A stretch of DNA of 64,000 nt from an uncultured Gemmatimonadaceae bacterium (GCA_963716745.1 OY970320.1:1728001-1792000), one strand, 5' to 3'; counted from the first letter of the stretch, positions 5,086 to 61,518 are shown. Numbers and translations: made by a program. Notes: a model not told the origin generated them from the letters alone.

Positions 5086-6417
5086 TGCGCCGCCTCGTTC
5101 TCCTCGCCGCGACCGCGTTCGCGTCCGCGGGCCCGCTCGCTGCGCAGCAGACCCCGGCGCCGCGCGCCGGCGCACGCTTCGACACGAGTACCGTCGCGTT
5201 CGATACCGGCGGCGTGCACGTGATCCTGCGGCGCAATCCCGCCAACGATGTCGTGGCCGCCAATCTCTACTTGCTCGGCGGCGGCCAGATGGTGACGCAG
5301 GCGAACGCCGGCATCGAGCCGTTCCTGCTCTGGGTGTCGGAGCGCGGCAGCAAGAATTATTCGCAGGATGCGATGCGCACGAAGATCGCCGCGCTGGGCA
5401 GCACGATCGTGGTGGCGCCGAGTGACGATTGGACGCTGTTCGGATTCCGCGGCGTGCGCTCGACGTTCGACAGCACGTGGGCGATCTGGGCGGATAGGCT
5501 CACGGCGGGCACGCTCGACGCGCCGGACATCGAGTTCGTGCGCGACCAGATCCTCTCGGCGCTGCGGCAGCGCGACGATAATGCCGATGGCCTGGTGCAC
5601 GTGCTGGCCGACAGCGCGCGATTCGTGGGGATGCCGTACTCGATGCCGGTGGGTGGGAGCGAGAAATCGGTGTCGTCCTTCACGGCCGCGCAACTCGCGG
5701 ACTGGCGCGCGACCAAGATCATCACGTCGCGCATGCTGCTCGTGGTAGTGGGGAACATCGAGCGCGATCATCTCGCGAAGATGGTCGCGGCGACGTTCGG
5801 CAAACTGCCGCGCGGCGCGTACAAGTGGGTGCCGCCGGTCGCGACGCCGGGCGTGGGCGGGCCGGCGGTGATGGTGCAGAAGCGGCTGCCGACGAACTAC
5901 CTGCTCGGCTACTACATCGGTCCGCCGGCTTCGAGCTCGGACGCGACCGCGCTGCGCATCGCGACCGCGGTGATCGCGGGACGGTTGTTCACCGAAGTGC
6001 GCTCGCGGCGGAACCTGACGTACGACGTGGACGCGCCATTCGAGGAGCGCGCGATCACGACCGGCGGATTGTACGTGACCACCGCGTTCGCCGACTCGAC
6101 GCTGGAGATCATGCGGCGCGAGACCGAAGCGCTGAAGCGCGGCCGCCTGGACCCCGAGCAGCTCAATCTGATCGAGGAGCAGTTCATCACCGAATATTTC
6201 CTGAAGAACGAGACCAACGCCGACCAAGCCGGCCAACTCGCGCGCGCGCAGGTGTACCGGGGCGATTACCGGTACGCGGACAAGTTCGTGCTGGAGATCC
6301 ATGCGGTGTCGCCGCTGGGAGTGCAGTATGTGGCGCAGAAGTACATGAAAGGGTTTGTTTGGGCGTTTGTGGGGGATACACTCCGCGTTACGCAGGGCGA
6401 AGCTGGAGCAGTTCTGA
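5085..6417 (+). CDS. M16 peptidase non-catalytic partner subunit (open frame runs to 6512; removing one G near 6395 gives ..QAKLEQF* at 6417)
   Basis: Signal peptide, RLFTEVRSRRNLTY (R/Y pair), no HxxEH; TGATG coupling. Confidence 0.85.
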
Positions 6418-6677
6418 ACGGCGTGAGTCGCGACCTGAACGCCGTGACTCGTACCCCGAACGCCGTGAGTACCGAGTCGTGCGTCGTGGACCACGCACGG
6501 CGTGAGTCGTGACCCGTGACGCCGTGACATCGTACCCCGAACGCCGTGAGTGCACGCACGACTCACGGCGTTCGGGGTTCGACTCTCGGCGTTCGGGTTA
6601 CCAATTACGCAGTCCAGTAAGTACGACGCACGACTCGGTACTCACGGCGTTCGGGTTACGACTCACGCCCTTGGTCG
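6414..6677. repeat. Composite direct and inverted array of ~21-nt units (ccgaacgccgtgagt...)
   Basis: ~50-bp duplication (6420-6470 vs 6499-6551), perfect 18-bp hairpin 6534-6551/6561-6578, ~45-bp outer inverted repeat. Confidence 0.9.
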
Positions 6678-9512
6678 TTAGGGTGCCTTGAGCGTGACTT
6701 TCACTCCGGTTTCCATCTCGACCGTCACCGTCTTCCCCGATTGCATCAGCACTTGCTCCAGCTGTGCCACGTCCGTGATCTTCACGCCGTTCACCGTCTT
6801 GATCGCCGCGCCCCGCTTGAGTCCCGCTGCCGCCGCGGCGCTCGCGTCGTCCACCGTACCCACTCTGATCGCTCCGCTCTGCGTGCCTTGCACGTCGATC
6901 CCCCACGCGCCGATCCGAAGCGGCACTCCCACGCACGGCTCGCCGAAGATGCCCTGGTAGCTCACGCCTTCGGGCAGCTCCACCGGCTGCAGGATGCGGC
7001 GCAGGTGACCGTCGCCCACGATGCGCGATTCATCCACCGCCACGAATGCCGTGTACTGCGACACGAGATGGTACTGCACCGCGAGGTCGGTGATCGCGCG
7101 CTCGTAACCTCCGCGGTCCGCGGAGTCCGCGGCCAGCTGCTGGCTCGAAAGATCGGCGATCTTCGCGCGCGCCCACACCGGCGCCAGCGCGCCGTGCTCA
7201 CTCTCGCGCTCCGGCAGCGTCACGCGCACCGGGTACCGCACGCGCCGGCTGCCGACGCGTCCGGTCACATAGAACGTGCCCTTCGCCGGACTCGTGTACT
7301 TCGCGATCAGATTGATGGTCTGCCCGCCGAACAGATCGGGCAGCTTGGACGGATACATTTCTTCCACCGGCAGGCCGTTCCAGTCGACCGCGACATCCAC
7401 GAGCACCGGTGAATCGATCGCCTCGAACAGCATGCTCACGCCGCGATCCGCGTACGCACTGTCGCGCGGGATGAGCGCGAAGCTCTCGCCGCCGCCTTCC
7501 TGGCCGATGCCGTCAATGAGATAGCGGTTCACACTCGAGCCGATCCCGAAGCCGAAGAAACGCGCGTCGCCCCGCTCCTTCTTGATCGTCGCGAGGATGC
7601 GCGGCTCGTCGCCCACGTAGCCATCGGTCATGAAGACGTACATCTGCAGGTAGCGCGCGTCATGGTGCGCGTGCAGCGCGCGCTCGAGACCGGCGAGCAT
7701 CTCGGTGCCGCCGCCGGCGTTCAGATTCTCGAGGAACGCCTTGGCCGCCCGGATGTTCTCGTAGCTGCCGAGTTGGGCGCGTTCCCAGAGCTGCGCATTG
7801 TTGCCGGAGAAATAGACGATGTTGAAACGGTCATCCGGGCGCAGCTTGTCGAGGGAACGGATCACGACCTGCTTCGACATTTCGATCGGAATCCCCATCA
7901 TGCTGCCGCTCACGTCCATGATGAACGTGATCTCGCGCGGCGTGACCTGCTCGTCCGTCGGCTCGGCGGGCGGCTGCATCTGCAGCGTGAGGAATCCGGG
8001 GCCATTCTCGCTCTCGCGGTTCGTGATGACGCCGAACTGCGTCTCGTCGCCGGCCACGCTCCAGCGGAGAACGAAGTCGCGGTTCGGGATCGAATCGCCG
8101 GCGGCGAGATGGATCACGCGCTTGTCCGAGCTCGGGCGCGAGATCTCCACGTGATGCGCGGGCACGTTGAGCTTCGTGATCGGGAGGCCGGCGTCGAGCG
8201 TGACCGTGAGGCCAATGTCGTGGCCGCTGCGCTGGCCGGGCTTGAGGACCGGCGGCGTGATGTGGCTCGCGTCGGGCACGACGTTCGTGTTGGGACTCCA
8301 GCCGCCGCCATCGGGATTGACGGGATGCGGCGGATTGCCGGCGAGTAGACCGGGACCGGTGGCGCCGCCGGGGATGTAACGCGGCCCGACGACCATCGGC
8401 ATCACCCACTCATACTCACCGTGCTGGTACGGCAGGCGCTCGAAGTACGTGATCTTGATGTCCACGTGCCCGCCCGGCTCGATGTTCGCCACGCTCTGCG
8501 TGAAGATGTTCGGGCGCTCCTGCGTGAGGAGGCTCGCCGTCTGACCGCGCGCGATCGCCTCACGATAGATACGCTCGGCTTCGCCGCGCGGGCGCACGAT
8601 GCCGATGATCTTGCGGCCGCCGACTTCCATCATGAAGTCGTTCACCGCCGCCATCGACGGGAGCGGGAAGACATAGACCGCTTCGATCACTTCATTGAAC
8701 GGGTTCGTGTACTGCTGCGTGACCGTCGTGCGCGCGAGGTAGCCGGAGATATCCGCGTTGACGTCCGTGTGCTTGAGCGGGAATTCGCCCGCGATCTCGC
8801 CGTCGGGGCCGCGCGCGCGAAGGGTACCTTGCGTGACTGGGCCGACGTCCTGCGCCGCGTGTTGGACCGTGCGGTTCGGACCGTCGCCGCGCTTGGTCTT
8901 CACATCGCTCGTCGACTGGGCGCGTTCCATGACGACGACTTCGTCGGCGTCCTCGAGTTTGTCTTCGATCCCGTTGGAGGGTGCGTAGGCGGATTTCATC
9001 GCGGGCATCGACATCGGCGCGACGGCGCTCATCTGCATGCTCGTCGAGGACCCCGGGGAGCCGGCGCTCTGCTCGTTGATCGACATGCCGAGCTTCCCGC
9101 TTGTCGGAGTCGTACCCTCGCCGGTGACCACTACCTCGCTGAGTCGCAGCGGATTCGTCTTGAGCGTGAAGTTCTCCGTCCGCTTCTCGCCGGCGTGGAG
9201 CAGGATCTTCCGCGAGATAGGCTTGAAGCCGATCAACCGAGCCGAGAGCGTGACGGAGTCGGCGGTGATTTTCGCGGCGGGCACCGTAATGCGGTACCAA
9301 CCCTCGGAACTCGTCATCGTGCCGAGGTTCTTTCCCTCGAGGAACACGTTCACGCTATTGAGCGGCGCTCCGGCTTCGGACTGGACATTCCCTTCGATGA
9401 TCGCGGCGTTCGGATCGTGTCGCGGCTTCGACGCGACCTTTACGACATCGGCCGCGGGGAATGCGAGGAGTCCGACCATCGGGACGAGGGCGAGCGAGTA
9501 CAAGCGGCGCAT
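6678..9512 (-). CDS. Exported VIT + VWA domain protein with N-terminal carboxypeptidase-regulatory-like domain and C-terminal PDZ-like domain
   Basis: FPLKHTDV..QQYTNP..EAVYVFPLP (VIT); DVSGSM MIDAS, GGTEM, TDG (VWA); GGAGG RBS before MRRLYS. Confidence 0.9.
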   Translation of the reverse strand: MRRLYSLALVPMVGLLAFPAADVVKVASKPRHDPNAAIIEGNVQSEAGAPLNSVNVFLEGKNLGTMTSSEGWYRITVPAAKITADSVTLSARLIGFKPISRKILLHAGEKRTENFTLKTNPLRLSEVVVTGEGTTPTSGKLGMSINEQSAGSPGSSTSMQMSAVAPMSMPAMKSAYAPSNGIEDKLEDADEVVVMERAQSTSDVKTKRGDGPNRTVQHAAQDVGPVTQGTLRARGPDGEIAGEFPLKHTDVNADISGYLARTTVTQQYTNPFNEVIEAVYVFPLPSMAAVNDFMMEVGGRKIIGIVRPRGEAERIYREAIARGQTASLLTQERPNIFTQSVANIEPGGHVDIKITYFERLPYQHGEYEWVMPMVVGPRYIPGGATGPGLLAGNPPHPVNPDGGGWSPNTNVVPDASHITPPVLKPGQRSGHDIGLTVTLDAGLPITKLNVPAHHVEISRPSSDKRVIHLAAGDSIPNRDFVLRWSVAGDETQFGVITNRESENGPGFLTLQMQPPAEPTDEQVTPREITFIMDVSGSMMGIPIEMSKQVVIRSLDKLRPDDRFNIVYFSGNNAQLWERAQLGSYENIRAAKAFLENLNAGGGTEMLAGLERALHAHHDARYLQMYVFMTDGYVGDEPRILATIKKERGDARFFGFGIGSSVNRYLIDGIGQEGGGESFALIPRDSAYADRGVSMLFEAIDSPVLVDVAVDWNGLPVEEMYPSKLPDLFGGQTINLIAKYTSPAKGTFYVTGRVGSRRVRYPVRVTLPERESEHGALAPVWARAKIADLSSQQLAADSADRGGYERAITDLAVQYHLVSQYTAFVAVDESRIVGDGHLRRILQPVELPEGVSYQGIFGEPCVGVPLRIGAWGIDVQGTQSGAIRVGTVDDASAAAAAGLKRGAAIKTVNGVKITDVAQLEQVLMQSGKTVTVEMETGVKVTLKAP

Positions 9513-9701
9513 GGGAGCCTCCGGCATCTTGCCTGGTGTTCGCGGTGGCGAGATGCACACCGCGCTGGCAAGGGGACGCCGGTCATCGCGGGACTTGCAC
9601 ACGGCGACTGCCGGAGCTGGAGCGCCATACCCGCGTCACTCGTTACCCTGGCGCTTCGATGCGCCCGGCGATGGCCGCGGAATGGAGCGGCCGGACGCGC
9701 G

Positions 9702-10115
9702 CTAGTTTCGCTCGAAGTCCCAGCCGGAGGCCGGCCAATTGGTCGGCTGGCCGCGCATGAGCACCCATGTCAAGTCGCCGGCCAATCTCACGGTGATCAA
9801 GTTAGTGCCATGCCATATCGCGATGGTTCCGTGGTCGCCCGTGAAGGTCAGTGACACTCTATCACCATCGACGACGCCGCTCACCGAGAGGCTCTCAGCC
9901 GCTCGCCCTATGTCGCAGAATAGGCCGCTTCCGGTGACCACTGTCCCCTCCACGTGGAGCTGGAAGTGGAAGCAGTAGCCCGACGGGTTGAACTCGTTAG
10001 GGTCGACCCATGATCCATCGACGCGCGTCGACGCAGTCGGGTTCTCAGTGGGTGTGCTGCAAGCCATCACGACGGGGACGACGGCGGTTAGGACGGCAAC
10101 AAGAGAGAGTCGCAT
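9702..10115 (-). CDS. Hypothetical lipoprotein
   Basis: Hydrophobic N-terminus with lipobox-like VMAC; beta-rich; GAGG upstream. Confidence 0.6.
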   Translation of the reverse strand: MRLSLVAVLTAVVPVVMACSTPTENPTASTRVDGSWVDPNEFNPSGYCFHFQLHVEGTVVTGSGLFCDIGRAAESLSVSGVVDGDRVSLTFTGDHGTIAIWHGTNLITVRLAGDLTWVLMRGQPTNWPASGWDFERN

Positions 10116-10215
10116 GCGCGCCTCGAGAGGGAGGTCAGACTTATACCCGTACGACGCAGCATGTTGCCGTCGGACGCCTGCCGCAATGGTCCTCGCACAG
10201 CGCAAGCGATGCTGA

Positions 10216-11022
10216 TCAATTCGGCCGGCTCCCGAACGGCGCCGCGTACGCCGCGAGCGACCCGAGCATCTGCACCGACCACGCCGCCCATTTCTGCTGC
10301 GCCTCGGCGTTCAGTCCGTGCATGGTCTCATCGTCGTACTTCTGCTGCGTCACCCGCTCCTCATCGAACGCCGCGGCGCCGAGTGCGTCGCGCTGGGCGT
10401 CGGTCATCTTGCACGGGTGATCCACCATCATGTAGGTGCGGCGCAGCTCGCGCGAGATGATCTCGGAAATGTTGAAATGCACCTGCTCGTGCGCGAGCGC
10501 GACGGCACTCTGCATCTGGTTGCCGACGACTTCCGGCCGCACCCACGACTCGCGCGGGATGAACGCGGCGATCACGCCGTACTGGAACAGGTTTCCATCG
10601 CAACCGGAGCCGGAGATCTGCCCGACCTCCGACAGCGCGGCCTCGCGCCCCAATGGCTGCGGCGGCGCCTGGAAATCATTCCACGTGAGCGGACGCGAAG
10701 GACTCCATTCGATGCCGCCGCGCTCGGAGAGCTGGGCGCGCAGACTCGAGGCAATGCGGTCGGTCGACTGCGGGATGTTCGCGTCAGGCTCGCCACCGGC
10801 CGTGCGCGCGGGCGGGTGCGGCGGACGCGCGATCTCGTCTTCGAAGACCGCGGTCACGAGACCGGCGGTCCGCACGGGCGTGGTCTTCGCGGGCGCGGCC
10901 GGCTGCCGTGGCGCGGCGATCGAATCATGCACGGCCGCGCGCTGCTTCCGGCCGCCGGCACCGTGGCCGATGCAGGCGGCGAGAATGATCAGCGCGAAAA
11001 CGAATCGGCGAGTCGAGCGCAT
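10216..11022 (-). CDS. DUF922-like putative Zn-dependent protease, exported
   Basis: W...RPLTW.DF, SWV, HEQVHFNISE, YDDETMHG...Q..W. Confidence 0.78.
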   Translation of the reverse strand: MRSTRRFVFALIILAACIGHGAGGRKQRAAVHDSIAAPRQPAAPAKTTPVRTAGLVTAVFEDEIARPPHPPARTAGGEPDANIPQSTDRIASSLRAQLSERGGIEWSPSRPLTWNDFQAPPQPLGREAALSEVGQISGSGCDGNLFQYGVIAAFIPRESWVRPEVVGNQMQSAVALAHEQVHFNISEIISRELRRTYMMVDHPCKMTDAQRDALGAAAFDEERVTQQKYDDETMHGLNAEAQQKWAAWSVQMLGSLAAYAAPFGSRPN

Positions 11023-11033
11023 TCGCTACTATA

Positions 11034-11924: not shown

Positions 11925-12307
11925 TTCTCGCCCTCAGGTGCGATGTCCCAATACGGGATGTCATTCGCGGGCCCGCGGTCAGCGATCGCCTGATCGAGCA
12001 GCCGCTTCGCCTCGTCGATCTTGAGCGCGCCCACCTTCGCGCGCGCCTCGGCCTCGGTGCGGCCTCGCGCCAGGTAATCTGTTTCGCGATGTCCGGTCAC
12101 CCGCGGCTCGCCGCGGCTCCAGCGCACGAACACGAAGTACGCGGCGTAACTCGCGCGCGGATCCTCCGTCTCGTCCACGTCGATCTCCACGGTGTAACTG
12201 AGACCGTCGCTCCCTTCGAATCCCGCGGGGCGGTCGTGCACCGCCATCCAGCCGCCGATCGTGCTGTCGTCGCCCTTCGAATGGTCCGGCGGTAGATGAC
12301 GACCCAC
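11921..12307 (-). CDS. Hypothetical protein
   Basis: Sits between PRODH and rsgA, overlapping the rsgA start; plausible globular sequence. Confidence 0.7.
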   Translation of the reverse strand: MGRHLPPDHSKGDDSTIGGWMAVHDRPAGFEGSDGLSYTVEIDVDETEDPRASYAAYFVFVRWSRGEPRVTGHRETDYLARGRTEAEARAKVGALKIDEAKRLLDQAIADRGPANDIPYWDIAPEGEK

Positions 12308-17855: not shown

Positions 17856-18383
17856 ATGCCTACCTCGACTCCTTCCCGCCCCGCCGCTGGCGAATTCTTC
17901 GAGTATTACGGCAAGTACATCGCGCTCGTACCCGACGGCGATGTGCGCGGGCATATCGAGCATCAACTTTCGGATACGGTCGCGTACATCAAGTCACGCC
18001 CCGAGTCGTGGGCGATGTCGCGCTACGCGCCGGGCAAGTGGAGCGTGAAGGAAGTGATCGGCCATTTGGCAGATGCGGAGCGGATCTTCGCCTACCGCGC
18101 GCTGCGCATCGCGCGCGGCGACGCCACAGCGCTCGCGGGCTTCGACGAGAACGCGTATGTGCCGGTCGGGAAGTTCGACGTGCGCGAGACGCAGGAGCTG
18201 CTCGAGGAATTCGCCGCGACGCGCGCCGCGACGATCGCGATGTTCCGCGGCTTCGATGACGCCGCGTGGGCCCGCACCGGCAACGCGAGCGGGCATGCGA
18301 TCAGCGTGCGGGCATTGGCGTACATCATCGCGGGGCACGAACGGCATCATCTCGCCATTCTGCGCGATCGGTATTCCCAATAG
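17856..18383 (+). CDS. DinB/YfiT family protein
   Basis: YAPGKWSVKEVIGHL.D.ERIF.YRAL...AGHERHH. Confidence 0.9.
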   Translation: MPTSTPSRPAAGEFFEYYGKYIALVPDGDVRGHIEHQLSDTVAYIKSRPESWAMSRYAPGKWSVKEVIGHLADAERIFAYRALRIARGDATALAGFDENAYVPVGKFDVRETQELLEEFAATRAATIAMFRGFDDAAWARTGNASGHAISVRALAYIIAGHERHHLAILRDRYSQ

Positions 18384-18389
18384 CGCTTG

Positions 18390-18547
18390 TAGGCCTTAGT
18401 ACCGCTGAAAGGGCGCGTCTGGCAACTGAGCGTATGGTACAGCTCGGCGGGAGTGGGGCCCACTTCCGCCGAGCCGTACCATACGCTCAGTTGCTAAACG
18501 CGCTGTTTCAGTGGTACTAGGGCCTAAACGCGCTGTTTCAGTGGTAC
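18390..18547. repeat. Long palindrome (68-bp arms, 18390-18526) plus 30-nt-period direct repeat (18494-18517 and 18524-18547)
   Basis: Arms match at 60/68; ctaaacgcgctgtttcagtggtac occurs twice. Confidence 0.92.
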
Positions 18548-18565
18548 CAGCAACAACGTTCGTAG

Positions 18566-20231
18566 TTAGCGTCTCAGCTTATTCGCCATTGAGTCCGCGA
18601 TCGACCCCGCGAGCCGCTCCGTGAGTTCTTTCAGCTCGTCCGACCGTTGCCGCACCTTGCGTACGAAAAATGTTCGCGCCGTGGCGTACGCCGCCGCCAC
18701 CAGCCCGCCCGCGATCGCGAACGTCGCGAGGAACGAATGCGTCGCCCCGATCGTGATCCCGATCGACGCGCCGCCGAAGCCGCCGCCGAAACCGCCGACG
18801 ATCCCGCCGAATAGTTCACCGGCCAGCGGGCCCATCCGTTCCTCCGCCCGGATCGTCGTGAAGCCCCCGCGCACGCTGATCGTGATCATCGCTTTGCGTT
18901 TCGGGTGCGTCGACACCCACGTGAGCGAACGCCCCACGCTGTTCACTTGCCCCACATCGCCGAGCTGCCGACGGATGATCTCGATGACGATGTCGTAGTC
19001 ATTGGCGTCCACTTCGCCGGGGATCTTCGCTTCGTACATGAGTGACATTGGCGCGCCCGCCCAGAATCCGGACGGCGATGGGTGCGCCTCCACCGGGACG
19101 ACCGCGCTCGCGCTGCCTGCCTCCGGCGCGGCTGGTGTGATGCCCAGATCTTCGAGCGCGCGCGACACGTACTGCCCCGAGATCCCCGCCTCGAGCGCCG
19201 CCGACCGTACGTTCGCGAGCGCGTAGCCGGTCGTGAGCGGCGATCCCTTCGCCGGCGCGGGAGGCGCGACCGTCGGCGGCACCATCGCCCCCGTGAGCGC
19301 TTGCAGTTCCGATGCGCGCTTCCACACCGCCTCCGCCTCGGAAGCGGATAGCACGCGCGGCGCCGCGGCCGGCGCGTCGATCCCCGGATCGGCGAGCACC
19401 GACTCGATCGCGCGCGCCATATCGCTTCCCGTGGGGTAGCGCATCATCGGCTCGCGCATCAGGCACCGGTCCACCACGGCCGCCAGCGCGGCCGGAACGT
19501 GCGGCGCCACCGACTTGAGCGACGGCGCGCGCTTGGTCACGTGCGACACCAGCACCGCGCTCGCCGTCTCGCTGTCGAACGGGAACGATCCAGAGAGCGC
19601 AAGGAATCCCACCACGCCGAGCGCATAGAGATCGGTGCGGCCGTCCAGCTTCTCCCCGGACACCTGCTCGGGCGACATGTAATGCACGGTGCCGAGCACG
19701 TGACCCGTGGCCGTGAGCGGCGCGGCGTCCGCCACGCGCGCGATCCCGAAATCGGTGACCATCGCGCGGCCGGTGCCGTGCTCCAGCAGGATGTTCTCCG
19801 CTTTCACGTCACGATGGATCACGCCGTGCGCGTGCGCGTATCCCAGCGCCAGCGCCACGTCGCGCAGATAGTTCGCGGCCTCGCGCGCACTCAGCGGTCC
19901 GTACGCTTTCACCTTCTCCGCGAGCGATTCGCCATTCACATACGCCATCGCGAAGTACACGAAGCCGCCTGTCTCGTCGGCACGGTAGATAGACACGATG
20001 TTCGGAATGCGAGAGCAATGCTGCCGTGCGCGCCTCACGCAGGAAACGGTCGCGCGTCGCCGCATCCTGCATGTGCCGCGGCAGCGTCTTGATCGCGACG
20101 TGCCGCGCGAGCTTCTCATCGCGCGCGAGGTACACCACGCCCATCCCGCCGCGCCCGATCTCCCGCTCGAGCGCGTACTGCCCTGCGAGTGCCGCCGCGA
20201 GTTCGGTGAACTCCGACGTCGTCGCCGTCAT
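18566..20231 (-). CDS. Hanks-type Ser/Thr kinase with C-terminal Gly-rich membrane hairpin; +1 frameshift near 20006
   Basis: [13 protein letters not shown] in one frame; HPNIV restored by deleting one [17 protein letters not shown] in the other frame. Confidence 0.9.
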
Positions 20232-26694: not shown

Positions 26695-26733
26695 CGGAGT
26701 TACCACGGCGAGCGGACACTTCCTAACAGGCAT

Positions 26734-26790
26734 GGCTGTCGGCTGTCGCAAGCAATCGCGGTTGAATGCGACAGCCGACAGTCGACAGTC
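26734..26790. repeat. Heptamer (GGCTGTC/GACAGYC) inverted array, possible bidirectional terminator
   Basis: ggctgtcggctgtcgca ... tgcgacagccgacagtcgacagtc between convergent genes. Confidence 0.8.
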
Positions 26791-26795
26791 CGCAT

Positions 26796-27962
26796 CTAGC
26801 GTCGGTAGTGTGGCCCTGTTTCGAACTCCTTTTGCAACGCCTTCATCAACTGCTCCCGCTTCTCCATCAGCCGCCGCAGTTTGCGCGGCCTCCGGTTCGC
26901 GAGCGCGTACGACGTGATGAGCGGCAGCGCGATCGTCGAGTCGGTATAGCACACCACCGCATCCGGCAGTTTATCGGGATCGATCTTCCCCCAACTCACT
27001 GCCTCGCCTGGCGTGGCGCCCGAGAGTCCGCCGGTGTCGGGGCGCGCGTCGGTGATCTGCAGGAAGAGATCGTGCCCCCGCTCATCGATGCCGAGCACTT
27101 CCTGGATCTGCGGTTCGGTCTGCAGCGCGAAATTCTTGGGACTCCCGCCGCCCGCGATCATGATCGCGCTCCGGCCGCCGCCGCGCTTCGCGCCGAGCAC
27201 GATCGCCGCGGTCTCGTTCACATCCTTGTTCGGGTCGAGCACGAGTTTCGATCCCTCGAGCGCGAGCGCCGCGACGTTCATGCCGATCGACGAATCGCCG
27301 GGCGACGACGTATAGATCGGCACGCCGCACGCGTACGCCGCCGAGAGCAGCGACTTCTGCCCGATGCCGAGCTTGGTCTCGCGCTCGCGGATGTACTTCC
27401 CGCACAGGTAATGGAATTCCGCGCTGCTCATCGCGCGCTGGAATTCCGGCGCCCGCATGATCTGGCGGAAGAATGCGTCGGTGTCGAGCAGCACGTGGAA
27501 GTCGAAGAAGATATCGTAGATCCGCACGACGCCCTCCTCGCGCAGCAGCACGTCCGACGTCTGCGTGTTGCCGCGGTGCATCGCGAGCCCCAGTCCGAAA
27601 TGCGTGTCGTGATAGAGATTCGCGCCGGTGGAGATGATCCAGTCCACGAATCCCGCTTCGATGAGCGGGATGAGCACGGCGATGCCGAGCCCGGCGGGCG
27701 TGAGCGCACCCGTGATCGTGAGCCCCACGGTCACGTCCGGCTCGAGCATCTTGCGCGTGAACAGCTGCGCGCCCTCGCGCAGCCGCGCCGCGTTGTACGC
27801 GAGGAACGTGCCATCGATGAGCTGGGTGATGCTCTCGCTGCCGTCCACACGCCGCGGATCGATGCGCGCGCCGCCGAGGAAGCGGCTCGCGCGTTTCACC
27901 GGCGGAACCGTCTTCTTCTTCACCGCCGCCGCTTTCGGCTTCACGGGCTGTTTCTTCTTCAT
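26796..27962 (-). CDS. Deoxyhypusine synthase-like protein (probable homospermidine synthesis)
   Basis: [43 protein letters not shown] with catalytic Lys. Confidence 0.9.
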
Positions 27963-42260: not shown

Positions 42261-42265
42261 GGGTT

Positions 42266-42303
42266 CTAACGTCTAGGTCTAGCGTCTAAGTCTGCAGTTC
42301 AGC
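42266..42303. repeat. Degenerate 6-7-nt tandem array (TAGACNN on minus) starting at the ferredoxin stop
   Basis: Minus strand gcTGAactgcagacttagacgctagacctagacgttaga. Confidence 0.55.
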
Positions 42304-48941: not shown

Positions 48942-50375
48942 ATGAGCAGTCAGATCGAGTCCCTCGTCAACAAAGAATACGAGTACGGCTTCGTCACCGA
49001 CATCGAAGCCGATACGATCCCGCGCGGCCTCACCGAAGACACGGTGCGGCTCATCTCGGCCAAGAAGCAGGAACCGGCGTGGCTGCTCGAGTGGCGCCTC
49101 AAGGCGTTCCGCCGGTGGACCACGCTCACCGAGCCGCACTGGTCGAACGTGAAGTATCCGCCGATCGACTATCAGAACCTCTACTACTACTCGGCGCCTC
49201 GCACGAAGAAGCCGCTCGGCAGTCTCGACGAAGTCGATCCGAAACTGCTCGAGACGTACAACAAGCTCGGCATCTCGCTGAGCGAACAGAAGATGTTGTC
49301 GGGCGTCGCGGTGGATGCGGTGTTCGACTCCGTGTCCGTGGGCACGAGTTACAAGGAAGAGCTCGCGAAGCACGGGATCGTCTTCTGCTCGTTCTCCGAG
49401 GCGGTGCGCGAGCACGGCGACCTCGTGCGGAAGTACCTCGGCAGCGTCGTGCCGGCGAACGACAATTTCTTCGCCGCGCTCAACTCCGCGGTGTTCAGCG
49501 ACGGCTCCTTCTGCTACGTGCCGCCGGGCGTGCGCGCGCCGATGGAGCTCTCGACGTACTTCCGCATCAACGCCGAGAACACGGGACAGTTCGAGCGCAC
49601 GCTCATCGTGGCCGACGAGGGCGCGTACGTGAGCTATCTCGAGGGTTGCACCGCGCCCAAGCGCGACACGAATCAGCTGCATGCGGCCGTGGTGGAACTC
49701 GTCGCGCGCGATCGCGCGACGATCAAGTACTCCACGGTGCAGAACTGGTTCGCCGGCGACGCCGCGGGCAAGGGCGGCATCTACAATTTCGTGACGAAGC
49801 GCGGCAAGGCGGGCACCGACGCCAAGATCTCGTGGACGCAGGTGGAGACCGGCTCCGCGATCACGTGGAAATATCCGAGCGTGATCCTGCAGGGCGACCG
49901 CTCCGTGGGCGAGTTCTACTCGGTGGCGGTGGTGAACAATCATCAGCAGGCGGACACCGGCACCAAGATGCTCCACCTCGGCAAGGACACGAAGAGCACG
50001 ATCGTCTCGAAGGGGATCTCGGCCGGCCAGGGGAACAACAGTTACCGCGGCCGCGTGTTCGTGAGCCCGAAGGCGGCGCGCGCGCGCAATTACACGCAGT
50101 GCGATTCGATGCTCATCGGGAATCGCTGCGGCGCGCACACGTTCCCGTACATCGAGGTACAGAACGACAGCGCGACGGTGGAGCACGAAGCGAGCACGTC
50201 CAAGATCGGCGAGGACCAGATCTTCTATCTGAAGCAGCGCGGTCTGAGCGCCGAGCAGGCGGTGAGCATGATCGTCGCCGGCTTCTGTCGCGAAGTGTTC
50301 AAGGAACTGCCGATGGAATTCGCGTTGGAAGCGCAGCAACTGCTGGGGATCACGCTCGAGGGAAGCGTTGGCTGA
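48942..50375 (+). CDS. sufB: Fe-S cluster assembly protein SufB
   Basis: [43 protein letters not shown]. Confidence 0.98.
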
Positions 50376-50379
50376 ACTA

Positions 50380-50486
50380 CGCGGGAAGCGGGACGCGGGA
50401 AGCGCCGCGGGACGCGACGAACTGACGAATGCATGCTCCCTTCAGTTCTCGCATCCCGCGGCGCATCCCGCGTCCCGCGTCCCGCG
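50380..50486. repeat. Heptamer (GCGGGAN) inverted array between sufB and sufC
   Basis: cgcgggaagcgggacgcgggaagcgccgcgggacgcgacgaactga pairs with tcagttctcgcatcccgcggcgcatcccgcgtcccgcgtcccgcg. Confidence 0.9.
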
Positions 50487-54564: not shown

Positions 54565-54858
54565 ATGTATGCGATCGCGATCATCCGCTATCGGCGGCCG
54601 CTCGAGGAGATGCTCAAGGTGGTCGACGCGCACCGCGCGTACCTGGGCGAACTCAAGGCGAAGGGGATCCTGCTCGTGTCCGGGCCATTCGAACCGCGTA
54701 ACGGCGGCGCGATCCTGCTCCGCGTGCCCGATGAGGGCGCGCTCGCGGCACTCGACGCCGTGCGCGACGGCGATCCCTACATCAAGGCCGGCATCGCGCA
54801 GTACGAGATCCTGCCGTGGAAGCCGGGGATCGGCGCGGAGTCGCTCGAGCGGCTCTAG
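54565..54858 (+). CDS. YciI family protein
   Basis: AHRAYL, SGP, GG, DPY. Confidence 0.85.
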   Translation: MYAIAIIRYRRPLEEMLKVVDAHRAYLGELKAKGILLVSGPFEPRNGGAILLRVPDEGALAALDAVRDGDPYIKAGIAQYEILPWKPGIGAESLERL

Positions 54859-56061
54859 TCAGCGGCGCGTGCGGCCGCGCGTCGGCGGCGCCCAATCGGG
54901 CATCATGCGCCGCATGAAATCATCGAACATCGGTACGGTGAACGCCGTGTCGCCTCGCGCTGGGCTGTAGATCATCCCTTTCTGGATCAGGTCGCCGCGG
55001 ATCGGCGCCGCGGCAGTGATCGGCAGCCCGAGCAGGTCCGCGATGGCCGCCGATCGGTGCGAACCCGGGCCGAGCTCCGCCATCGCGCGAACGTAGTCGC
55101 GTTCGCGCGGTGAGAGGCGATCGAACCGCACGCGGAAGAAGCCCGCGTCCAGTGCGCGCAGTGCGTTCTCGGTGGCGCGATCGGCGTCGGCGAGCGTGAT
55201 GGGCGATGCCACCGCGGCATTCCACGCGTGCGAGCCCCACTCCTGCAAGAAATATGGGTAGCGCTCGGTACGCTCGACAATGCGCGCGAGTGCGGCCGGT
55301 GCGATGTCCACTCCTTCATCGATGATCGGCTGGCGGATCGCTTGCGCGGCCGCGGCCGGAGAAAGTGGCCCGACCTCCGGGAAATCGAACAACCGCTCGG
55401 CGTACGATTTCGCTTCGCCTACGAGTCCTGCGAGTTGCGGCAGACCGGCGCCGAAGACGATGAGCGGCAGATCACGCTGGGCGATCTTGTGGATCGAGAC
55501 GATGAGCGCGCCGAGATCGTTCTCGCTGAGGTACTGCACTTCGTCGATGAAGATCGCGACACCCCGCGACGCGGCTTTGGCCGCGCGCGCGACCGCCTCG
55601 AGCAAGGCGGGCAGGTCGGATTCGAGGTCGCCGGAATCGGCGACGCCAGGCTCCGCCTCCACGCTGAACTCCGCGCCGCCGTACTTGACCTTGAACGCGC
55701 TCGCGAACGAACGCAGCACGCGTATGCCTCTGTTCGCGAGTTCGCGCGCATGCGCGATCCCGCTCAACTTGAAGAGCGTAGCGCGCAACGGCGGTACGAG
55801 CATCTCCGCGAGACGGCGGCTCTCGGGCGCTTCCAATACCACCGTCAGATAGTTCTGCATCTCGGCGATCTCGGCGATGCGATTGAGCAACACCGTCTTG
55901 CCGACGCCGCGGAGCCCCAACAGCAGCTGGCTTTTCGCCGGCCGGCCGTCGATCACGCGCTTGAGCGCGACCGTCGCATCGTCGATGATGCTCTCGCGGC
56001 CCGCCAGCTCGGGAGGGCGCGTGCCTGCACCAGGTGCGAATGGGTTCCTTGCTCTGTCCAT
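54859..56061 (-). CDS. AAA+ ATPase (archaeal-ATPase/AAA_16-like) with probable C-terminal winged helix
   Basis: NPF.PG.G..PP.LAGR, GLRGVGKT, IFIDEVQ, YPYFLQ, R..LI.KG.IY, FTVP.F. Confidence 0.85.
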   Translation of the reverse strand: MDRARNPFAPGAGTRPPELAGRESIIDDATVALKRVIDGRPAKSQLLLGLRGVGKTVLLNRIAEIAEMQNYLTVVLEAPESRRLAEMLVPPLRATLFKLSGIAHARELANRGIRVLRSFASAFKVKYGGAEFSVEAEPGVADSGDLESDLPALLEAVARAAKAASRGVAIFIDEVQYLSENDLGALIVSIHKIAQRDLPLIVFGAGLPQLAGLVGEAKSYAERLFDFPEVGPLSPAAAAQAIRQPIIDEGVDIAPAALARIVERTERYPYFLQEWGSHAWNAAVASPITLADADRATENALRALDAGFFRVRFDRLSPRERDYVRAMAELGPGSHRSAAIADLLGLPITAAAPIRGDLIQKGMIYSPARGDTAFTVPMFDDFMRRMMPDWAPPTRGRTRR

Positions 56062-56079
56062 GCGTCGAGAATCGTCCTG

Positions 56080-56150
56080 TGATTTCTTAGCGATTTATCC
56101 AGTATTTATGACTATAATTACTAACTAGTGTAACTAATGGATAAATATGC
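56080..56150. promoter_or_regulatory. AT-rich island bracketed by inverted ATTTATCCA/TGGATAAAT, upstream of the AAA+ gene
   Basis: 9-bp inverted repeat at 56093-56101 and 56138-56146. Confidence 0.5.
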
Positions 56151-56255
56151 CTGATCGAGCCCCGTCGCGCAATTCCGCGAGCCCCGCGGTCATACGAAGG
56201 AATTCTTATGGACGATCGGCCTAAGATCGCTAATTCGGCAGCGCGCGCGCCGGCG

Positions 56256-57281
56256 TCAACATAGATGCACCGCCATCGCCTTGAAGGAGACCCAGACCCG
56301 CTGTCCCTCCGCAAGCGCCAGGTCCTCCGCCGATCGCGTCGTGAGCGCCGCCACGAGCGGCACCCCGTCCACGTCCACCACAGCGCGCGTCAAAGCGCCG
56401 AGCGCCGCGATTTCGGTGACGCGGCCGTGGAACCGGTTCCGCGCCGATGACACGCCCAGTCCCGTCGACAGCGTCACCTCCTCAGCGCGGATCACCGCGT
56501 GGCCCGGACCCGGGTGCGCGTCGCCCACGGTATAGAACGTGAGCGGGCCGGTCGCGAACTCGATCTCACCGTCGCGCACTCGAACTTCCCCCGCGAAAAC
56601 GTTCTCGGCGCCCAGGAACTCGGCGATGTACGGCGATCCCGGAGCGCGGAAGACGGTGTTGGGCGGCCCCGACTGCAGCACGCGGCCCGCATCGAGCAGG
56701 ATCGCGACATCGCCGAGCAGTCCCGCCTCGGTGAAATCGTGCGTCACCTGCAGCACCGTCATGCCGAGTTCGCGGTGCAGCGCGCGCACCTCGCGCCGCA
56801 CTACCGCGCGCCGACGTGGGTCGAGCGTGCTGAACGGCTCGTCGAGCAGCAGCACAGGCGGCCGCGCGGCGATGGCGCGCGCGATGGCTACGACCGCGCG
56901 CTCGCCCCCGCTGAGCGTTCGAACATCGCGCGCCGCGAGCGCATCGGCCCCGACGCGCGCGGCGACAGCGCGTGCGAATGCCGGATCCGTCGCTCCATAG
57001 GCGATGTTCTCCGCCACCGAGAGATGCGGGAAGAGATAGCCGTGCTGGTGCACGAGGCCGATGCCGCGGCTCTCGGGCGGCACGCCGGCGGCATCGCGGT
57101 CGTTGACGATGAGCGTGCCGCCGTCGTGCACGATGAGGCCCGCGATCACTTCGAGCAGCGTGGTCTTGCCCGAACCCGCCGGCCCGATCACCACGCCGTA
57201 CTTGCCACGCGGCACTTCGAACGTGACCTCGCGCAGCGAGAACTCGCCCGCGTGGGCCGAGAGCGATCGGACCGCGATCAT
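56256..57281 (-). CDS. wtpC: Molybdate/tungstate ABC ATP-binding protein with TOBE domain
   Basis: GPAGSGKT, LSGGE, LLLDEP, VTHD, SSARN TOBE. Confidence 0.88.
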   Translation of the reverse strand: MIAVRSLSAHAGEFSLREVTFEVPRGKYGVVIGPAGSGKTTLLEVIAGLIVHDGGTLIVNDRDAAGVPPESRGIGLVHQHGYLFPHLSVAENIAYGATDPAFARAVAARVGADALAARDVRTLSGGERAVVAIARAIAARPPVLLLDEPFSTLDPRRRAVVRREVRALHRELGMTVLQVTHDFTEAGLLGDVAILLDAGRVLQSGPPNTVFRAPGSPYIAEFLGAENVFAGEVRVRDGEIEFATGPLTFYTVGDAHPGPGHAVIRAEEVTLSTGLGVSSARNRFHGRVTEIAALGALTRAVVDVDGVPLVAALTTRSAEDLALAEGQRVWVSFKAMAVHLC

Positions 57282-58078
57282 GCTTCGCTCGCGCGATGCT
57301 CGGGACGCAACGCCCGCAAGGCAACGAGCGGCACGAGCGCGAGCAACACTAAGATGGCCGCGACGGGCAGTGCCTCGGTAAGTCCGTAACTGGTATAGCG
57401 ATCGTAGCTGAGCACGCTCGCGACTCTGGGATTGTACGTGAGCACCACGATCGCGCCGAACTCGCTCACCGCGCGCGCCCACATCACCACGCCCGCGGCG
57501 ATGAGCCCGCGCGTCGCGAGTGGCAGCGTGACGCGGCGGAAGGCGCGCCACGGCGGATCGCCGAGCGTGCGCGCGACGTTCTCGTAGCGCGCGTTCACGC
57601 CGCCGAACGCCTCGCGCGCGGCGCTGATGAACAGCGGCGCCGAGACGAACAGCATCGCCGCGATGATGCCGGCCGGCGAACCCACCACGCGCAGTCCGGC
57701 CGCGAGGAGCGCGCCGCCCACCGCGCTCTGGCGGCCGAGCACGAGCAGCAGCGCCATGCCGGCCACCGGATGCGGCACGAGGAGCGGCAGATCGAGCAGC
57801 GCGGCAAGCAGCGAGCGGCCGCGGAACCGACGTCGTTCGAGGAGATAGGCGAGCGGCGCTCCACCGATCACGCCGAGGAGTGTGGCGACGGTGGCGGTGA
57901 GCGCCGTGAGCGCGAGCGAGTTGCGCAGCTCGGCGTCAGTGAAGAGGCCCGCCGCGCCGGCGGCGCCGCCCGCAGCGACGAGCCGCGCGAGCGGCGCGAG
58001 AAGGAAGAGCAGGAACAGCGAGCCCGCGAGCGCCGCGATCACCGAGGCGGCGCGGTGTGTCGCGCGCGTGCCGTTCAC
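57278..58078 (-). CDS. wtpB: Molybdate/tungstate ABC permease
   Basis: DLP..VPH.VAG.ALL, ARTLG, WARAVSEFGA. Confidence 0.88.
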   Translation of the reverse strand: MNGTRATHRAASVIAALAGSLFLLFLLAPLARLVAAGGAAGAAGLFTDAELRNSLALTALTATVATLLGVIGGAPLAYLLERRRFRGRSLLAALLDLPLLVPHPVAGMALLLVLGRQSAVGGALLAAGLRVVGSPAGIIAAMLFVSAPLFISAAREAFGGVNARYENVARTLGDPPWRAFRRVTLPLATRGLIAAGVVMWARAVSEFGAIVVLTYNPRVASVLSYDRYTSYGLTEALPVAAILVLLALVPLVALRALRPEHRASEA

Positions 58079-59004
58079 GGAGAAGCGGCGCGCGCGACGG
58101 CGTCCGGGGCGCCGGAGCCGATGATCGCCGGACGCGCGAGCACGTCGAGTTTGTTCGCGCGGAGCACGCGCTGTCCGTCGGGCGAGAAGAGATACGCGAC
58201 GAAGCGCGCCGCCAGCACGGCGTGGGGTGCGCCCACCGGAATGGAGAGCGCGAAGACGATCGGCGATCCGCGGAAGGTCACCGAGTCACGCGGCGTATTG
58301 CCCGCGACGCGCACCGACACCGTCGCGTAGCGCGCACTGTCGGCGGGATCGCCGAGATCGATCTCCGCCGGCAACGTCAGATACGAGAGCGACGCGGCCT
58401 GCGCAACCGATTCATATGCCCAGATGTAGTCGAACTCGCCCGCCTGGACGAGCGCGACGAGATCCGCCGATTTCGGACGGATGTTTCGCGGCGGACTCGC
58501 GGCGAGCAGCCGCGCCGCGGCGCCCGGCTGGGCGTAGTACGCCTCGGCGAGCTGCAGCACGAGGAGCGTTCGATAGCCGTTGGGATCCAGATCCGGATTC
58601 GCGCGCCCGGTCTCGACGCCCGGGCGCAGCAGCACCGAGGTCCAATTCTTGGCGGTGATCTCCGAGGCGAACTTGGACTTCGGCGTGTACGCGATCACCA
58701 TGCGATTACGCGCGAACAGCGCGTACCACGTCGTGTATTTTGGGCTCAGGAGCTGGGGGAACACGTCGTAGTCCGCGAGCGCGATCACGTCGGGGATCTT
58801 CCCGAGCTCGGTGAGCTTGCGCGCGGTCTCGAGACTGCCGGCGTTCTCCTGCGCGACGGTGATGCGCTCGTGCGCGGCGAAGCTGTCGGCCGCGGCGCGA
58901 AGCGGTCGGCCGAGGGAGCCGGCGTTGAAGAGGGTGAGGTCCTGGGCGCTGACACGGCTCCCTGCGAGAGCGAGCGCAATGCACGTGGCGATTCTAAGGC
59001 GCAT
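58075..59004 (-). CDS. wtpA: WtpA-like molybdate/tungstate-binding protein
   Basis: AGSL..P, GS...ARK, ADY, DPNGYR, Y.SVA, LP.EIDL. Confidence 0.85.
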   Translation of the reverse strand: MRLRIATCIALALAGSRVSAQDLTLFNAGSLGRPLRAAADSFAAHERITVAQENAGSLETARKLTELGKIPDVIALADYDVFPQLLSPKYTTWYALFARNRMVIAYTPKSKFASEITAKNWTSVLLRPGVETGRANPDLDPNGYRTLLVLQLAEAYYAQPGAAARLLAASPPRNIRPKSADLVALVQAGEFDYIWAYESVAQAASLSYLTLPAEIDLGDPADSARYATVSVRVAGNTPRDSVTFRGSPIVFALSIPVGAPHAVLAARFVAYLFSPDGQRVLRANKLDVLARPAIIGSGAPDAVARAASP

Positions 59005-59006
59005 GT

Positions 59007-59158
59007 GAGTTCGGGATTCGCGATTCGGGATTCGGGCTCGCACGAACGGAAGTTCGCCGCTCATCCCGCGTGTGGCAACCAATGCACCACAATGGCCGTA
59101 CTGCGTGCGGTGGGAGTAATTTGTGTCGTCCCCGAGTCCCGATATCCCGAGTCCCGAG
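59007..59158. repeat. Two opposed heptamer arrays (CGGGATT / CCCGAGT) abutting divergent start codons
   Basis: ttcgggattcgcgattcgggattcggg (59010-59036) and cccgagtcccgatatcccgagtcccgag (59131-59158). Confidence 0.75.
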
Positions 59159-59164
59159 AAGTTC

Positions 59165-60127
59165 ATGCCCGATTCCGCCGTCGAGATCTCGCACGTCGTC
59201 AAGAAGTACGCCGGTCACGCGGCGGTGAACGATCTGTCGCTCACTGTTCCGCGCGGTTCCGTGTACGGTCTGCTCGGCCCCAATGGCGCCGGGAAGACGA
59301 CCACCATTCGCATGCTGCTCGACATCATCGAGCCCGATGAAGGTTCGATCACGGTGTTCGGCAAGCCGCACGATGCGCGCGGGAGCACCGACAAGATCGG
59401 CTATCTGCCCGAGGAGCGCGGCCTCTACAAGAAGATGCAGGTGCGGCGCGTGCTCCGGTTCCTCGCCGCGCTCAAGGGCGTGCCGCGGCGCGAGGCCGAC
59501 CGCCGCATCACCGCGTGGCTGGAACGTCTCGAGCTCAAGACCGCCGAGAAGGACTGGGGACTCGCGAAGGTGGACGAGCTCTCGCGCGGCATGCAGCAGA
59601 AGGTGCAGTTCATCGGTGCGCTGCTGCACGAGCCGGAGCTCGTGATCCTCGACGAACCGTTCAGCGGGCTCGATCCGATCAACGCGCAGGCGCTCAAGGA
59701 CATCATGATCGATCTCCGCAACCAAGGGCGCACGGTGGTGTTCAGCACGCACTTGATGGACAGCGCCGAGCGCATGTGCGACTCAGTGTGCATCATCGCG
59801 CGCGGACGCAAAGTGCTCGACGGCGGCGTGGCCGCGGTGAAGGCGCAGCATGGGGGCCGCTTCGTGGCGCTCTCCTTGTCGCATGGCGCGCCGGCCGCGG
59901 GGGCGGTGCTCGCCGACGCGTCGCTGGTCGCCCGCGCCGACGACTCGAACCGCTCGCTGGAGATCGAGCTCGCGCGCGGTGCCGACGCGCAGCAACTGCT
60001 CAAGCGTCTCGTGGACGCCGGCGCCGGTATCGAGCGCTTCGAGCTCGTGCAGCCGTCGCTGCACCGGATCTTCCTCGACGCGGTGGGCGCCACCGGCGTG
60101 GAAGAGGGAGTGACCGGCCATGGGTAA
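59165..60127 (+). CDS. ABC-2 exporter ATP-binding protein (YhaQ/NatA-like)
   Basis: GPNGAGKTT, GYLPEERGLY, LSRGMQQK, ILDEPFSGLDP. Confidence 0.92.
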   Translation: MPDSAVEISHVVKKYAGHAAVNDLSLTVPRGSVYGLLGPNGAGKTTTIRMLLDIIEPDEGSITVFGKPHDARGSTDKIGYLPEERGLYKKMQVRRVLRFLAALKGVPRREADRRITAWLERLELKTAEKDWGLAKVDELSRGMQQKVQFIGALLHEPELVILDEPFSGLDPINAQALKDIMIDLRNQGRTVVFSTHLMDSAERMCDSVCIIARGRKVLDGGVAAVKAQHGGRFVALSLSHGAPAAGAVLADASLVARADDSNRSLEIELARGADAQQLLKRLVDAGAGIERFELVQPSLHRIFLDAVGATGVEEGVTGHG

Positions 60128-61400
60128 GCTCTGGGCGGTGATCTCGCGCGAATACATGGAGCGCGTGCGCAGCAGGTGGTTCGTGTTCGCAACGGTGTTC
60201 GGTCCCGTGCTCTTCGGGGCGCTGCTCATCCTGCCGCCGCTGCTCGCACTGCGCACGAAGGCCTCGGACGATGTCGCGAACATCGTGATCCTCGACGCCA
60301 CGGGCGCGGGAGTCGGGGAGCGCGTGGCGGCGGCGATACCGCGTCCCGTCGGCGCTCCCATGCCGACGGTGCGCGTCGTGACGATCGATACCCTCACGCG
60401 CGCCGAGAGCACGGCCACGCACGAGGTGATGCGCGCCGATAAGCGTGGCTATCTCGTCCTCGATCAGCGAGCGCTCGCCGGTGAGTCCGCGCGCTACGCC
60501 GGCCGCAACGCGAGTTCGATCGGCGACATGGAAGCCCTCACGAGCGTCGTGCGCCAGAGCGTGTTGCGCACGCGCCTCGCACAGGCGCACGTGGACTCCG
60601 GTCAGGCGGCGACGATCGCGTCGCTCAAGCCGGAGCTCATCACCGAGCGGCTCTCGGAACAGGGACGTGCCGGCTCGGGCATGGTGAACGCGTTCGCCGG
60701 ATTCGGCATCGCGTTCCTCTTGTACATGTCGATCATCCTTTACGGGCAGACAGTACTGCGCGGCGTGATCGAGGAGAAGAACACGCGCGTCGCCGAGGTC
60801 GTGGTGGCGAGCGTGTCCACCGATACGCTGCTCGCGGGCAAGGTGTTAGGGGTCGGCGCGGTGGGGATCACGCAGCAGATCCTCTGGATCGCGAGCGGGA
60901 TCCTCATGGCCAAGTTCAGGGTCCCGATCCTCACCGCACTCGGCGCGAAAGCGGAGCCGGTCGCGCTTCCGCATGTGGGCCTCCCGGTCGCGATCGTGCT
61001 CCTGCTCTTCTTCGTGCTCGGATACATCTTCTATTCGTCGCTCTTCGCGGCGGTGGGCGCGATGGTGAGCAATGAGCAGGACGCGCAGCAGGCGGCGACG
61101 CCGGTGATCATGCTGCTCGTCACACCGATGCTCTTCCTGCAGACGATCCTGCTCAACCCATCGAGCCGCACGGCGGAGATCCTCTCTTGGATCCCCTTCG
61201 CGGCGCCGATCATCATGCCGCTCCGGATGATCGTGACGAGCGTGCCGTGGATCGAGGTCGCGCTGACCCTCGCCGGCGTACTCGCTGCCTGCGCCGCCGC
61301 CGTCTGGCTCGCCGCGCGGATCTATCGCGTGGGCCTGCTCATGTACGGCAAGCGGCCGTCTCTTGGAGAAGTCGCGAGGTGGGTGCGAAGAGCTAGCTGA
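60120..61400 (+). CDS. ABC-2 exporter permease (YhaP/NatB-like)
   Basis: REY..RVR, VIEEKNTR..E, GK.LG, ARIYR.G.L.YG. Confidence 0.9.
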   Translation: MGKLWAVISREYMERVRSRWFVFATVFGPVLFGALLILPPLLALRTKASDDVANIVILDATGAGVGERVAAAIPRPVGAPMPTVRVVTIDTLTRAESTATHEVMRADKRGYLVLDQRALAGESARYAGRNASSIGDMEALTSVVRQSVLRTRLAQAHVDSGQAATIASLKPELITERLSEQGRAGSGMVNAFAGFGIAFLLYMSIILYGQTVLRGVIEEKNTRVAEVVVASVSTDTLLAGKVLGVGAVGITQQILWIASGILMAKFRVPILTALGAKAEPVALPHVGLPVAIVLLLFFVLGYIFYSSLFAAVGAMVSNEQDAQQAATPVIMLLVTPMLFLQTILLNPSSRTAEILSWIPFAAPIIMPLRMIVTSVPWIEVALTLAGVLAACAAAVWLAARIYRVGLLMYGKRPSLGEVARWVRRAS

Positions 61401-61518
61401 ACGACGCGGGACTCGGGACTCGGGACTCGCCGCGGGATTCGACAACTACCCGGTGTAGCAACGCGCCGTTCACGAATCCCGCGGCGAGTCCCGAGCCCCG
61501 AGTCCCGCGTCGTTCAGC
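61396..61518. repeat. 46-bp near-perfect inverted repeat of GGGACTC heptamers including both convergent stop codons
   Basis: gctgaacgacgcgggactcgggactcgggactcgccgcgggattcg vs right arm 61473-61518, 45/46 identical. Confidence 0.95.

Follow-up and report, generated by a model that had tools for sequence, protein, structure and literature searches.

In the 23S rRNA of Coxiella burnetii, an intervening sequence carries an S23p (PF05635) ORF, terminal inverted repeats and tandem heptamers, and the homopentamer deposited as PDB 2GSC has, according to the same source, no known function (PMC4990558). REPINs are intergenic hairpin doublets found in several families per genome, each tied to a RAYT gene flanked by the same repeat (PMC3116915). 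Heptamer repeats of Xanthomonas and Nostoc are intergenic and often occur as convergent pairs near the upstream ORF (PMC4692102). Stop codons donated by repeats have already been described, both for REPs, whose GTAG termini often give TAG stops to flanking ORFs (PMC3733652), and for the TAACTGA repeats of Beggiatoaceae, which overlap the upstream stop in 13 cases (PMC4679880). Heptamer repeats and the PF05635 family are both left unexplained in the accessible text of these papers, and the genus studied here links them.

The window, by which we mean the whole 64,000-nucleotide stretch analysed (G000:C1 1,728,001-1,792,000), belongs to a 3.29-Mb single-contig genome (67% GC, 89.8% complete), hereafter G000, whose closest named matches for SufB (80-85% identity) come for the most part from MAGs of Gemmatimonadaceae and Gemmatimonadales. 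Genes were called with our own dicodon model, and some called ends are wrong where the assembly has indels. Public sequencing runs matched at most 0.21 of the words, and the contigs examined in them come from distant relatives. The original prediction was that repeat elements in this window start exactly at stop codons, with a shared (G)CTGAAC or TAAC end. All seven of its junctions between a repeat edge and a stop are present in the sequence, the one at the M16 gene only after frame correction, and the gene names are supported. The elements are real, and hairpin repeats of such kinds are known. Our literature search, which covered few subscription journals, returned nothing on a system of cassettes plus hairpins or on the flanking base bias described below.

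Heptamer hairpins and the genes enclosed by their arms

Tandem heptamers stand out at gene ends in this genome, with a period-7 score of at least 16/21 at 117 of 2821 ends and only 0-12 ends for periods 5, 6, 8, 9 and 10. Exact period-7 runs are intergenic in 211 of 294 cases, while intergenic DNA makes up 19% of the genome; the commonest 7-nt units are AAGCGGG, ACTCGGG, ACAGCCG, AACAGTC and ACGATGC, and paired arms make stems of ~45-60 bp. A first k-mer census (1548 calls) was too permissive and was replaced by a hairpin score (327 calls). A separate motif-based census, run without a shuffle control, marked 449 of 2882 junctions.

Elements of the window are listed in Table 1; an Rfam search of the window gave 0 matches. 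Several share arms with cassettes elsewhere in the chromosome that enclose a gene: the arms next to the DinB-family gene belong to the family that surrounds a PF05635 gene at 3095 kb, and the left arm of the sufB hairpin aligns with the 5' arm of a PF05635 cassette at 568 kb, as does the element between the ABC permease and brx.

Table 1. Hairpin and arm elements of the window (positions counted from its first nucleotide)
Element	Position	Strand	Stop codons at its ends	Remarks
Hairpin between divergent genes	3423..3566	.		Family encloses a PD-(D/E)XK (PF13366) gene at G000 1095 kb
Compound hairpin element between convergent M16 and VIT/VWA genes	6414..6680	.	M16 TGA 6415-6417 (corrected frame only); VIT/VWA TAA 6678-6680 (minus)	Both ends overlap a stop
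Hairpin (79-nt arms) with extra arm, between DinB-family gene and kinase	18379..18568	.	DinB-family TAG 18381-18383; kinase TAA 18566-18568 (minus)	
Heptamer hairpin	26723..26798	.	TAG 26796-26798 (minus)	Right end abuts the TAG; TAAC at left end is not a stop
Single heptamer arm fused to ferredoxin stop	42265..42301	-	Ferredoxin TGA 42299-42301	
Gene-less hairpin fused to sufB stop	50371..50486	+	sufB TGA 50373-50375	Fold -92.8 kcal/mol, z -11
Heptamer hairpin between divergent genes	59010..59158	.		Both ends face start codons; T(G)AAC absent
Near-perfect hairpin between convergent ABC permease and brx	61396..61518	.	ABC permease TGA 61398-61400; brx TGA 61514-61516 (minus)	Fold -117.4 kcal/mol, z -15; ends overlap both stops

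Compared with three relatives, the M16 subunit (window 5085-6512) is offset by one base close to its 3' end: the relatives have one base fewer just upstream of the stop and terminate at the equivalent codon, and the assembled frame consequently crosses the element and reads through to 6512. The copy in the relative G004 has a separate offset in mid-gene, and both offsets are possibly assembly errors.

PF05635, a four-helix bundle, has 7 matches in G000, 6 of them over the cut-off, and by eye all 6 of these 6 genes sit between inverted arms of dispersed families, among called protein-coding genes and not in an rRNA gene. The protein matches PDB 2GSC (E = 3e-21). A PF13366 nuclease-like gene is likewise enclosed, by eye, by arms of another family. 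Five relatives hold a further 37 PF05635 matches, of which 30 were retrieved. In a tree of 30 PF05635 proteins, built after six short, broken or mis-started rows had been left out, rows with the same arm type group together, but this does not show co-evolution because many rows are the same locus in different genomes. No PF05635 match was found in the window itself. Matching flanks on both sides were seen at 21 called genes.

The PF13366 gene (G000:C1:1094715-1095191, L008) is the only nuclease-like gene seen inside arms, and a second copy near 2953 kb is frameshifted. In G004, a PF05635 gene (G004:C3:797172-797336, L161) lies in the part of the genome that is syntenic to the window, with a weak trace at G002:C19:511467-511556. 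Short, accessory-looking genes at G000:C1:905000-951000 are set apart by about 13 hairpins of one family, an arrangement like that of a cassette array.

What the element and the gene each contribute to the stop

We compared stops with and without an adjoining hairpin, calling hairpins from base +6 after the stop to keep the motif from influencing which ends were scored. TGAAC or TAAC is not equally common at all stops: it occurs at 36% of hairpin-abutting stops (80 of 220), compared with 12% of free stops (118 of 1006; p = 1.4e-16) and 8% of tightly packed ones (107 of 1274), and the longer T(G)AACKRC at 57, 39 and 10 of these, respectively. Part of the matches among controls are single-arm elements missed by the hairpin score; with family-bearing ends removed, the control falls to 79 of 848, compared with 124 of 329 family-bearing ends. 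The enrichment at element stops is three- to fourfold, common and not universal, the motif being absent from 140 of the 220 abutting stops, as it is from two flush junctions of the window outside the original list (the two TAG stops of Table 1). The (G)C proposed to precede the motif survives in part, in that C shows a modest excess (104 of 220 abutting stops, 314 of 1006 free ones) and G is not conserved.

A profile of element ends over the whole genome separates the contributions of the two partners. We anchored arms on the repeat core alone, without the motif, before reading the six bases outside it, and recovered a shared end, AACKRC, which is also found at ends that are not stops. The 182 ends that face start codons read A52 A77 C69 K76 R90 C79 (percent), and the full AACKRC is present at 56 of these, at 52 of 86 stop-flush ends and at 49 of 138 stop-distant ends. 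The base before AACKRC at 100 start-facing ends is G in 44, A in 22, C in 20 and T in 14, and TG precedes it in 11 of the 100; at 77 stop-overlapping ends, the prefix is T in 46, TG in 29 and TA in 2. Since AACKRC also occurs at start-facing ends, where T or TG seldom precedes it, AACKRC belongs to the element and the T or TG to the gene, and the stop is a hybrid codon at the ancestral position. The proposal that the element end supplies the stop thus holds for AAC and fails for the T or TG.

Counting from the T of the stop, the first AACKRC starts at +1 in 62 and at +2 in 35 of 329 family-bearing ends, compared with 2-6 ends at each of +3 to +7. A second peak at +8 and +9 (16 and 11 ends) lies one heptamer further. 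TAAAC is found at only 3 family-bearing ends, a scarcity that would agree with joining at the stop's first A. Natural stops offer AAC at 5.4% and 4.6% for +1 and +2 versus about 1% elsewhere, and this roughly 5-fold availability accounts for the peak in part only. A constant CT dinucleotide ahead of the junction was ruled out, since it is seen at 15 of 46 TAAC overlaps, the same as background. One AACKRC variant contains GTAG in reverse; the other variants do not. Beyond the genus, three genomes (L079, L086, L098) likewise have the AACKRC leader overlapping the stop of sufB, as does 1 of 68 sufB loci without an element.

Fixed sites, changing occupants and a compositional halo

We compared G000 with three congeneric relatives, G002, G004 and G005 (96, 92 and 90% DNA identity around sufB), over a total of ~2.1 Mb in stretches picked for synteny and element content, a non-random sample in which a single G000 site may count against more than one relative, so that p-values across relatives are overstated. 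Sites holding a long G000 hairpin whose arm the relative has not kept were set against ends unoccupied in G000. A different long hairpin was present in G004 at 19 of 27 occupied sites versus 12 of 366 unoccupied ends, and in G005 at 21 of 28 versus 19 of 275; the comparison with G002 alone (2 of 11 versus 8 of 219) was not significant. Sites persist while their occupants change family. Within the window, G004 carries another hairpin family at the M16 site, and the ABC permease/brx site holds another arm family in G002 and G004 and a 5-nt spacer in G005. Cassettes are exchanged as well, at two places at least: near 2,198 kb three different ones occupy G000, G002/G004 and G005 (in opposite orientation in the last), and near 2,134 kb the G004 cassette differs from those of G000 and G005. 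Beside the G000 cassette at G000:C1:2198500-2198570 (L003) lies what is left of an arm from the family found at this site in G002 and G004, a sign that one replacement may be nested in another.

The stop codon differs between genomes at 38 of 105 sites with an element, compared with 25 of 183 free ends. Where the motif is present in one genome only (56 pairs), the stop position is the same in 46; the gene with the motif is the shorter of the two in 8 pairs and the longer in 2. On these counts, a build-up of C-terminal truncations was rejected as the origin of the pile-up. Judged from these alignments, the stop position is ancestral and the codon often rewritten. Insertion had been expected to be harmless to the gene, and to this extent it is, the protein end being kept; the unharmed ends are most simply read as an outcome of selection. 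SufB gives an example: all 30 of 30 loci (one of them, L021, on which no conclusion depends by itself, from the unpublished genome G012) end LEGSVG at one and the same codon, followed by TGA in 12, TAG in 11 and TAA in 7; its hairpin is present in all six genus genomes with five arm types.

Among 943 spacer pairs (G002, G004), 16 passed a length-difference filter, and these 16 length-variant spacers show no consistent target duplication, which had been suggested as a signature to look for. Two of the 16 are clean, element-free convergent junctions in G004, at which the direction, gain or loss, cannot be polarised; one has a 5-6-nt direct repeat in the filled G002 site, which could be the target duplication of a MITE of a DDE insertion sequence but is equally explained by deletion, and the other has none. 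Genome-wide, the stops of convergent gene pairs overlap by 4 nt in 23 of 303 cases, mostly as CTAG.

Genes beside elements also bear a bias at silent sites, here called the halo. Fourfold-site divergence in codons 1-5, 6-10 and 11-15 from the stop is 37, 32 and 25%, compared with 15, 20 and 18% in controls (444 of 1420 versus 330 of 1864 sites over the last 15 codons), and is at control level beyond codon 45. The C share at fourfold sites in the last 15 codons before elements is 0.24 (358 genes), compared with 0.36 before ordinary perfect stems (89 genes), 0.35 and 0.38 in two other free groups and 0.42 far upstream of elements. Near element-bearing stops it drops to 0.22-0.26 and is back up by about codon 60, and it rises with distance, being 0.24, 0.30 and 0.33 where the first arm motif is 32-60, 60-100 and 100-160 nt away. 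In genes starting at most 90 nt downstream of an element, it is G that is depleted (0.25-0.29, compared with 0.39). On either strand, C is scarce at silent sites up to ~150 nt 5' of an element, and G at those up to ~150 nt 3' of it.

The halo holds in a motif-free per-gene test (224 versus 731 genes, p = 1e-21), and T is not enriched over controls. It is equal on leading and lagging strands, which gives no support to replication strand as its source. Terminators were not supported either: a small terminator-like set (12 genes) is also C-poor, but the larger set of ordinary stems is without bias. Where one genome has no detected hairpin, the C share is still 0.27-0.28, compared with 0.46-0.48 at plain ends, although many such "empty" calls are degenerate elements; since the halo is equally present there, it may attract elements and not be their scar. 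Polarised substitution counts, which were too few, gave no C-to-T excess. A cross-genome test at sufB was weak (p = 0.12, 27 versus 68 loci, with L021 also among the 68 control rows); for GC-rich loci it gave p = 0.03 (21 versus 45), or 0.054 without five of the six genus loci.

Persistence at gene ends: candidate mechanisms and known systems

We propose that the hairpins persist at gene ends by repeated breakage, resection and patching, with selection stopping the junction at the stop codon, a model whose chances of being right or wrong we regard as evenly balanced. The hairpin would be cut by a host structure-specific nuclease or by a cassette-linked activity, and 5'-to-3' resection would expose 3' single strands, whose cytosines would be damaged to leave the halo. 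Single-stranded cytosine is prone to damage, and the loss of C in the 5' flank fits resection because the strand that 5'-to-3' resection leaves single is the C-poor strand. During patching from another copy, the incoming end would be attached to an A in the flank; joins eating deeper into the gene would be purged, while T+AAC and TG+AAC would rebuild a stop, giving the pile-up. The PF05635 protein is a candidate for recognising its own arm type. Breaks, intermediates and enzyme activity were not observed. A bolder version, possible but one that we lean against, makes the PF05635 cassettes the masters of a transposase-free homing system: a ring of the protein would bind its own heptamer arms and, via AACKRC, direct the cutting and replacement of the resident hairpin, and rewritten stop codons and a strand-symmetric mutation scar in neighbouring genes would be the outcome.

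It is unlikely, in our judgement, that an element-linked machine instead inserts at or within stops, guided by a DNA signal or by translation termination. The pile-up at +1 and +2, ~15- and 8-fold over +3 to +7, does exceed the ~5-fold natural excess of AAC; truncation is rare (the 8 shorter of 56 pairs), and at the two clean element-free G004 sites the stops are 1 nt apart. Yet the AACKRC end faces starts or lies off stops more often than it overlaps them (100 + 87 versus 77), new occupants arrive mostly at sites already occupied, a search of G000 turned up no reverse transcriptase, and the symmetric halo is left unexplained.

Alternatively, any long hairpin after a stop could serve the host as a terminator, mRNA stabiliser or translation brake, with interchangeable families, positions kept by selection and a flank bias that reflects selection on RNA structure. 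This function, compatible with break-and-patch, would account for sites that outlast their occupants. Period-7 arrays or hairpins follow sufB in 27 of 108 loci of several phyla, arm motifs mark convergent junctions (109 of 326) more often than tandem ones (268 of 2230; both counted without a shuffle control), and arms that are kept differ by 3, 10 and 12%, compared with 15, 19 and 32% at fourfold sites, a comparison biased by pairs picked for similarity. REPs of E. coli at most 15 nt from a stop stall ribosomes, as cited in the part of PMC12306157 available to us. We nevertheless think host function improbable as the full account, since it leaves the shared end, the gene-bearing cassettes and the family turnover unexplained, the bias is found beside families without a G-rich first arm too, and is absent at ordinary stems. 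Outside the genus, many genomes have such arrays after the sufB stop (loci L017-L120, including Cyanobacteria and Bacteroidota), with a different unit each time.

A host TGAAC or TAAC that pre-existed as the target and was simply retained is very doubtful. AAC is indeed available at natural stops about five times as often as elsewhere, and at TGAACKRC sites the partners without the motif are mostly TGA (15 TGA, 2 TAG, 0 TAA). For TAAC the idea is largely refuted: where TAACKRC is present in one genome only, the orthologue stop is TGA in 13, TAG in 10 and TAA in 6, close to background, which likewise leaves the predicted insertion into a stop-containing motif unsupported as a fixed target. The two motifs are interchanged in 4 pairs, and the M16 site has a different reading in each of four genomes. 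Integron attC sites have AAC...GTT ends, fold back on themselves and often overlap cassette stops, but that the hairpins are attC-like sites handled by an integron integrase is hardly credible, for although ends and stop overlap agree and an integrase over the TIGR02249 cut-off is found in G005 and a broken one in G000, RYYYAAC occurs at only 4/182, 5/86 and 6/138 ends (15/406 anchored), four of five genomes yielded no integrase over the cut-off, and the elements follow core genes such as sufB across the whole chromosome. The integrase lies in three pieces at G000:C1:2775564-2776508 (L273, L282) and whole at G005:C9:726701-727636 (L272).

The shared end word, the fixed and swappable sites and the measurable footprint make the origin and spread of heptamer hairpins testable. 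Our results suggest that such repeats may locally raise silent divergence and rewrite the stops of core genes such as sufB.

Like the S23p intervening sequence, the cassettes hold a PF05635 gene within heptamer-bearing inverted repeats; that sequence sits in 23S rRNA, whereas the neighbours of the cassettes are protein-coding genes, and their arms, with a common end, recur in hundreds of hairpins that enclose no gene. Likeness to REPs and REPINs lies in the inverted intergenic doublets that form a hairpin and in the partner gene flanked by the same repeat. Here, in contrast, PF05635 (or PF13366) is the gene enclosed, the arms consist of tandem heptamers and one occupant takes the place of another at a fixed site. 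A Y1 (HUH)/RAYT transposase, present in 11 of 41 relatives overall, was found in 0 of the 6 genus genomes, which are 63-90% complete, so that a mobilising gene may be absent from the assemblies. The RYYYAAC / GTTRRRY core of attC is not found at most ends, nor are the elements restricted to an array linked to an integrase. For diversity-generating retroelements, suggested by an Avd link, a search of G000 for the reverse transcriptase (RVT_1, PF00078) found none. The TAACTGA repeat of Beggiatoaceae resembles the leader found here (PMC4679880), and relative to the heptamer repeats as described in the accessible parts of PMC4692102 and PMC4679880, a partner gene, a shared end, the swapping of occupants at a site and a flank bias are seen only in the present system.
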